The notes under the pieces are model-generated. The model had not been told where the DNA came from and did no database searches. It worked only from the letters and a program-made list of their open reading frames with translations. A program made the position numbers and the translations under genes. DNA of 40,699 bases, from the IMG/VR virus record IMGVR_UViG_2511231131_000003. One strand, 5' to 3'. Below, one piece after another: positions 17,793-18,337 of this stretch. The stretch comes from a virus. Lineage: Duplodnaviria > Heunggongvirae > Uroviricota > Caudoviricetes. Every line of letters begins with the position of its first letter. Within the stretch, counting starts at the first letter, position 1.

Positions 17793-18311
17793 ATGGAAGT
17801 CAACAAAAAGCAGCTGGCTGACATTTTCGGTGCGAGTATCCGTACCATTCAGAACTGGCAGGAACAGGGAATGCCCGTTCTGCGAGGCGGTGGCAAGGGT
17901 ATGAGGTGCTTTATGACTCTGCCGCCGTCATAAAATGGTATGCCGAAAGGGATGCTGAAATTGAGAACGAAAAGCTGCGCCGGGAGGTTGAAGAACTGCG
18001 GCAGGCCAGCGAGGCAGATCTCCAGCCAGGAACTATTGAGTACGAACGCCATCGACTTACGCGTGCGCAGGCCGACGCACAGGAACTGAAGAATGCCAGA
18101 GACTCCGCTGAAGTGGTGGAAACCGCATTCTGTACTTTCGTGTTGTCGCGGATCGCAGGTGAAATTGCCAGTATTCTCGACGGGCTCCCCCTGTCGGTGC
18201 AGCGGCGTTTTCCGGAACTGGAAAACCGACATGTTGATTTCCTGAAACGGGATATCATCAAAGCCATGAACAAAGCAGCCGCGCTGGATGAACTGATACC
18301 GGGGTTGCTGA

Positions 18312-18337
<26 letters not shown>
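17793..18337 (+). pseudogene. nu1: terminase small subunit Nu1, frameshifted
   Basis: ATG at 17793 reads MEVNKKQLADIFGASIRTIQNWQEQGMPVLRGGGKG (lambda Nu1 N-terminus), then the frame is lost near 17901 (GGGTATGAGG where lambda has GGGTAATGAGG by my recollection) and a stop follows at 17931-17933. The remaining Nu1 sequence (LYDSAAVIKWYAERDAE... to ...EYIEQSG) continues in another frame to 18337. Confidence 0.8.

Follow-up and report, generated by a model that had tools for sequence, protein, structure and literature searches.

A one-base deletion very probably leaves a lambda-like prophage of an Escherichia coli O55:H7 subclade without a functional small terminase gene

The stretch of DNA analyzed here (the window, 40,699 nucleotides) is a full-length lambdoid prophage of about 40 kb that adjoins tRNA-Arg and fimZ. 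Its packaging region includes a cos site, the gene for the small terminase subunit and the gene for the large terminase subunit, with the following features:

17574-17792, plus strand: cos site, with cosQ GGGTCCT (17574-17580), the 12-nt cohesive-end sequence GGGCGGCGACCT (17604-17615) and a cosB region that extends to the start of nu1
17793-18337, plus strand: nu1/nohD pseudogene (small terminase subunit, TerS), 545 nt compared with the normal 546 nt
17900-17902, plus strand: deletion site, with a single A (17901) where lambda (299-300) and sister strains have AA; codon 37 (AAT, Asn) is destroyed
17793-17933, plus strand: open reading frame of the truncated product, 36 native and 10 out-of-frame residues followed by TAA
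17906-18337, plus strand: out-of-frame remainder of nu1 (Nu1 residues 39-181), a predicted open reading frame with GTG as first codon and AAGGG located 7 nt upstream
18312-20237, plus strand: gene A (large terminase subunit, TerL), an intact 641-aa open reading frame with a GTG start within the 3' end of nu1

Translation from the ATG at 17793 yielded a 46-codon frame in which the 36 native Nu1 residues (MEVNKK...GGGKG, in full MEVNKKQLADIFGASIRTIQNWQEQGMPVLRGGGKG) are succeeded by MRCFMTLPPS and the TAA stop codon at 17931-17933. The remainder of Nu1, residues 39-181, is specified by a different frame of 143 codons between 17906 and 18337. The gene was aligned to lambda NC_001416 nu1 (191-736) as well as to its orthologues in four O55:H7-type genomes. 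At the break lambda reads GGGTAATGAGG and the window reads GGGTATGAGG. A single gap was evident in the entire gene: the window and the E. coli O55:H7 strains DEC5D and TB182A share GGGT-ATGAGG, whereas lambda, DEC5A and FDAARGOS_946 possess GGGTAATGAGG. The sole other nu1 difference from lambda is a C/T substitution at gene position 351. The preliminary description had proposed these two frames and a one-base deletion by comparison with lambda. The coordinates, the residue count and the stop position of the first frame proved to be exact, the second frame was confirmed by translation and by the profile matches outlined below, and the lambda sequence given there was correct, with lambda carrying AA at the site.

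When one A was added back in silico, translation produced an uninterrupted 181-aa frame that matched the PF07471 (Phage_Nu1) profile with an E value of 2.5e-100 and a score of 333 bits (cut-off 30) across profile positions 1-164 of 164. The frameshift splits this match between the 46-aa fragment, which covers profile positions 1-38, and the remainder, which covers positions 40-164, with scores of 69 and 243 bits, respectively. The repaired frame also matched two PDB chains of the lambda small terminase, 6HN7 (residues 1-98) and 1J9I (residues 1-68), and the break at codon 37 falls within the 68-residue DNA-binding domain that was solved as 1J9I. The locus resembles lambda gpNu1 closely, with 545 of 546 nt positions retained and one substitution, and as in lambda it is situated directly after cosB and overlaps the GTG start of gene A, the expected location of a lambda-type TerS gene. 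Unlike lambda gpNu1, codon 37 is short of one A, the polypeptide terminates after 46 residues and the DNA-binding domain is halved. An N-terminal winged helix-turn-helix joined in one polypeptide to the C-terminal oligomerization and TerL-binding part is not encoded, as the stop codon intervenes after 46 codons. In DEC5D and TB182A, PGAP labels the locus 'nohD, DNA-packaging protein, frameshifted'; the DEC5A and FDAARGOS_946 copies are annotated as intact. As judged from its reading frames, the window locus is a pseudogene of the PF07471 family and not a functional member.

The flanking packaging determinants appear preserved. Gene A is annotated as an intact 'phage terminase large subunit family protein', and PF05876 and PF20454 were called on related contigs. 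Comparison of cosN and cosB revealed identity with lambda apart from a missing G, corresponding to NC_001416 position 138, which changes GAGGC to GAGC at ~17740 in cosB between the R sites. This change was considered as a cos lesion and rejected: strain CB9615 also lacks the G, so that its absence is a natural variant. It is presumably the known point at which other lambda stocks depart from the lambda sequence on deposit.

The distribution of the deletion allele was assessed with a 61-nt query centered on the deletion, for which an identity of ≥99% is reached by exact matches only. The segment occurs in 2,999 complete E. coli genomes (4,295 copies), of which two had the allele; the same exact-allele query detected it in none of 80 phage records. 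The 46-aa truncated peptide, which is possible solely where the deletion exists, provided a further means of tracing the allele. A protein-cluster look-up showed that the exact peptide was deposited from E. coli O55:H7 strain RM12579, the genome of which was published independently (AEZ39289.1, 'DLP12 prophage, DNA packaging protein', on a 5.26-Mb contig); EHV43866.1, EHV43909.1 and CAM3913379.1 are additional deposits. In sequence data of independent origin, 15 contigs encode the peptide, among them the NCBI drafts GCA_000249555.2 and GCA_965138275.1, the Logan assemblies SRR094146, SRR094149, SRR15369667, SRR25256431 and SRR25035215, and the ENA scaffolds ERZ28605693, ERZ28603484 and ERZ28596597 from gut metagenome assemblies. 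All of the deletion contigs shown possess GGGTATGAGG, and every one that reaches the marker positions bears the linked single nucleotide polymorphisms (SNPs) of the DEC5D type. Two contigs (L026 and L027) retrieved in the look-up with the 143-aa open reading frame were left out: they begin inside nu1, are contig-edge artefacts and have SNPs of the DEC5A type. The strains with the deletion have Sri Lanka and Washington state as their recorded origins, and the allele also occurs in other read sets and in metagenomes. From this distribution, the allele is derived and rare, and its occurrence is limited to a single O55:H7 subclade. Separately, the metagenome scaffold from ERZ28596597 (L013), which carries the deletion allele, shows 56 mismatches that are clustered toward the 3' end of gene A (equivalent to window positions 19715-20023). 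Either this scaffold is a chimera or a different prophage has acquired the frameshifted nu1 by recombination.

No mismatch separates the window from DEC5D (NZ_CP038386.1) across the 38,500 nt that were compared. When DEC5D, TB182A and DEC5A were set against one another over a 41-kb region, DEC5D and TB182A shared the deletion, ~34 SNPs and one more indel relative to DEC5A, and differed from each other by three SNPs (window positions 5369, 5676 and 31175). Fifteen of the ~34 SNPs that separate DEC5D and TB182A from DEC5A are clustered within 325 nt of the tail tip gene J (35428-35752). In TB182A, the accessions of the M, L, K, I, J and Lom proteins (region 29310-37558) are almost all shared with a lambdoid prophage at the ydfJ site, L differing through the SNP at 31175. 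These patterns suggest recombination or gene conversion between co-resident prophages.

Two other genes in the prophage also are broken:

28140-30701, plus strand: tape-measure gene of the lambda H type, interrupted at codon 75 by TAG (28362-28364); 'internal stop' in the PGAP annotation of DEC5D, TB182A and DEC5A
2298-2854, minus strand: phage N6-adenine methyltransferase pseudogene with a G5 to G4 frameshift near 2383; 'frameshifted' in the PGAP annotation

The tape-measure TAG allele is present in five genomes (DEC5A, FDAARGOS_946, DEC5D, DEC5E and TB182A), and DEC5A and DEC5E combine it with an intact nu1 gene. Because its distribution is wider, the tape-measure TAG is older than the nu1 deletion. 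The methyltransferase frameshift is confined to DEC5D and TB182A, the gene being intact in DEC5A, and the gene probably is not essential. The tape-measure TAG alone should abolish tail assembly in a non-suppressor host. The prophage exhibits two disabling changes besides that in nu1, in keeping with a decaying element. A private TT-to-T frameshift was observed in the major tail protein gene of DEC5A (segment L007, 28995-29734, equivalent to window ~27208); therefore, different O55:H7 sublineages accumulate different lesions in the same prophage. In CB9615, a related prophage that is taken to be at the same chromosomal site has nohD and tape-measure genes that are annotated as intact, with ompT, envY and nfrA downstream.

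These distributions place the loss of tail assembly first, through the tape-measure amber codon, and the lineage-specific frameshifts in nu1 and the methyltransferase gene afterwards, in genes that were no longer selected. Prophages ordinarily degrade in this way. The preliminary description had attributed a packaging defect of the prophage to nu1. The nu1 lesion is indeed disabling, but the prophage was already defective through the older tape-measure TAG. Overall, the nu1 lesion is a secondary hit and not the cause of prophage defectiveness, and is best read as neutral decay.

Two additional observations concern the early-left region and the integrase-proximal end of the window. A gene for a 535-aa SIR2-family protein (5640-7247, minus strand) lies in the early-left region, is intact in all three strains examined, and is flanked by a cell-division-inhibitor gene, taken to be kil-like, and by a cI-like XRE repressor gene. 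This position is typical of prophage-borne anti-phage defense cargo. A 66-nt partial helix-turn-helix fragment was annotated by PGAP at 1326-1391 (minus strand) just upstream of int, where the excisionase gene is expected; if this is a remnant of xis, prophage excision may also be impaired.

An explanation other than neutral decay is that the 143-aa product, which lacks most of the DNA-binding domain, is translated from the GTG at 17906, binds TerL and forms a terminase that is blind to cosB or dominant-negative, for example hindering superinfecting lambda-type phages. The Shine-Dalgarno-like AAGGG motif ahead of this codon would be compatible with such translation, as would the retention of the whole oligomerization and TerL-binding part (profile positions 40-164; domain roles according to PMC4669245). 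However, the AAGGG-GTG arrangement already exists in intact lambda nu1 and was neither created nor selected here. A further point in favor of a function is that the 143-aa open reading frame has acquired no additional mutations on the deletion-bearing contigs, the three differences that were noted (contigs L018 and L024) being upstream or in the part that encodes the 46-aa product, and the allele is found in the Sri Lankan and Washington strains, in read sets and in metagenomes. Preservation of the 3' 432 nt would also be expected if the remnant were under selection, yet it fits a recent event and is anticipated for one in a clonal lineage in which DEC5D and TB182A differ by ~3 SNPs per 41 kb. 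Moreover, the two other broken genes in the same prophage fit relaxed selection. A function for the remnant is therefore considered very unlikely. A more specific proposal, in which the remnant is expressed either constitutively or upon induction and, as a subunit that binds TerL but is blind to cosB, poisons the terminase that superinfecting lambda-type phages bring in, is judged to be less probable again. If true, the remnant would be a domesticated terminase fragment for superinfection defense, loosely analogous to the packaging-interference proteins of PICIs. PICI proteins interfere with the packaging of helper phages.

A frameshift offers no statistical pattern to which a comparison with chance could be applied, and its reality was assessed instead by reproducibility. 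Long reads from the PacBio RS II platform generally are prone to single-base indel errors, and a lost A would produce exactly such a frame break in a genome that retains the base. The closed DEC5D and TB182A genomes derive from one project in which PacBio RS II assemblies were polished with MiSeq reads via Pilon (PMC9413875). The other indel that the two genomes share is located in a G5 homopolymer. However, the nu1 deletion site is an AA dinucleotide and not a long homopolymer, short-read polishing was applied, and the A was retained in the sister genomes DEC5A, DEC5B and DEC5E of the same project. In addition, the deletion co-segregates with the ~34 SNPs, and the two closed assemblies are independent because three SNPs separate them. 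The truncated peptide from RM12579 and the presence of the allele on at least 10 further contigs from drafts, Logan read-set assemblies and metagenomes also argue against an artefact. Thus, the lesion is absent from intact orthologues and recurs in independent sequence data, and an error of sequencing or assembly is extremely improbable. DEC5D, TB182A and RM12579 constitute one phylogenetic group (PMC9413875). On the basis of the agreement between assemblies, it is concluded with high confidence that this one-base loss is genuine and vertically inherited, that it inactivates the TerS gene in the lambda-like prophage which E. coli O55:H7 carries at its tRNA-Arg/fimZ (DLP12) site, and that it marks the DEC5D/TB182A/RM12579 subclade.

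In lambda, TerS binds cosB through its N-terminal winged helix-turn-helix and TerL through its C-terminus, and the anchoring of TerL at cosB by TerS is critical for efficient and accurate nicking of cosN (PMC4669245). Translation from the normal start in the window can generate only a fragment with about half of the winged helix-turn-helix domain; the oligomerization and TerL-binding parts are out of frame and uncoupled from the DNA-binding half. Because the break at codon 37 separates these parts, no functional small terminase is predicted from the window gene and its own cosB would go unrecognized. From established lambda biology, an intact TerL (gpA) that is not anchored at cosB in the absence of TerS would be expected to fail in cosN nicking and in the initiation of packaging. 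The preliminary view that the prophage cannot produce a functional small terminase or package itself at cos is supported by the location of the break inside the DNA-binding domain, with the failure of packaging as the anticipated outcome.

This outcome would be averted if full-length Nu1 still were made through programmed recoding, either by a -1 ribosomal frameshift or by transcriptional slippage; the two frames do overlap over 17822-17933 and -1 is the correct direction, but a slippery-site scan of the overlap found no in-frame X_XXY_YYZ heptamer, the sole runs (A5 at 17805-17809 and T4 at 17824-17827) are both 75-95 nt upstream of the deletion, slippage at A5 runs into the TGA at 17819 and slippage at T4 misreads ~25 codons of the DNA-binding domain, and the two-frame layout is not conserved (two of 2,999 genomes, none of 80 phages) while functional relatives are all single open reading frames, so that the probability of recoding is practically negligible. 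The region accordingly has neither the slippery heptamer nor the conserved two-frame layout of a programmed frameshift site.

With nu1 inactivated, the prophage DNA would not be packaged by its own terminase, and the cos site would persist as an intact substrate for a terminase of lambda specificity supplied in trans. A second copy of the lambda-type nu1 DNA-binding domain was sought in the DEC5D and TB182A chromosomes by sensitive blastn with nu1 nt 1-203, which matched in one place only. The lambdoid prophage at the ydfJ site of TB182A has identical cosQ and cosN sequences and a cosB that is completely diverged. Its TerS consists of 169 aa with an unrelated N-terminus, resembles Nu1 over the C-terminal 92 residues only (46% identity), and matches PF07471 solely at profile positions 62-163. 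In sequence terms, such a combination is the classic sign of a distinct packaging specificity. Phage 21 likewise shares cosQ and cosN with lambda, yet the two discriminate by >1000-fold (PMC4669245). We infer that the prophage DNA cannot be packaged in this cell, with the qualification that heterologous TerS sometimes packages DNA with lambda cosB: a helper specific for N15 did so with lambda DNA at an efficiency of about 50% (PMC4669245).

A comparable case is prophage Sp4 of E. coli O157:H7 Sakai, in which nu1 is disrupted by an IS element and other morphogenesis defects are present (Asadulghani et al., 2009; PMC2669165). Sp4 nevertheless was packaged, probably by the terminase of Sp14, and the Sp4 and Sp14 cos sites are nearly identical (PMC2669165). 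Like Sp4, the window prophage is lambdoid with an inactive nu1 gene, and the serotype of the Sp4 host is derived from O55:H7. The lesions differ, a 1-nt deletion in the window in contrast to an IS insertion in Sp4. Furthermore, unlike the Sp4/Sp14 pair, the blastn search of the DEC5D and TB182A chromosomes revealed no second lambda-type nu1, and the co-resident prophage in TB182A differs in cosB and in the TerS N-terminus.

The gene name nohD assigned by PGAP recalls the Nu1 homologues nohD (DLP12) and nohA (Qin) in the cryptic, defective prophages of E. coli K-12. As with DLP12, the same chromosomal site is occupied by a degrading lambdoid prophage. The K-12 DLP12 element is, we assume, a heavily deleted remnant, whereas the window prophage is full length (about 40 kb) and bears point lesions only. 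The nu1 frameshift already is flagged in RefSeq/PGAP annotation and is a well-described kind of event, and it has little importance beyond annotation. Nonetheless, prophage predictors should not score the window prophage as 'intact', and the production of infectious particles on its own would be unexpected. The deletion provides a handy lineage marker for the O55:H7 DEC5D/TB182A/RM12579 group, and the prophage illustrates neatly, on a small scale, a stepwise decay in which the order of events can be dated.
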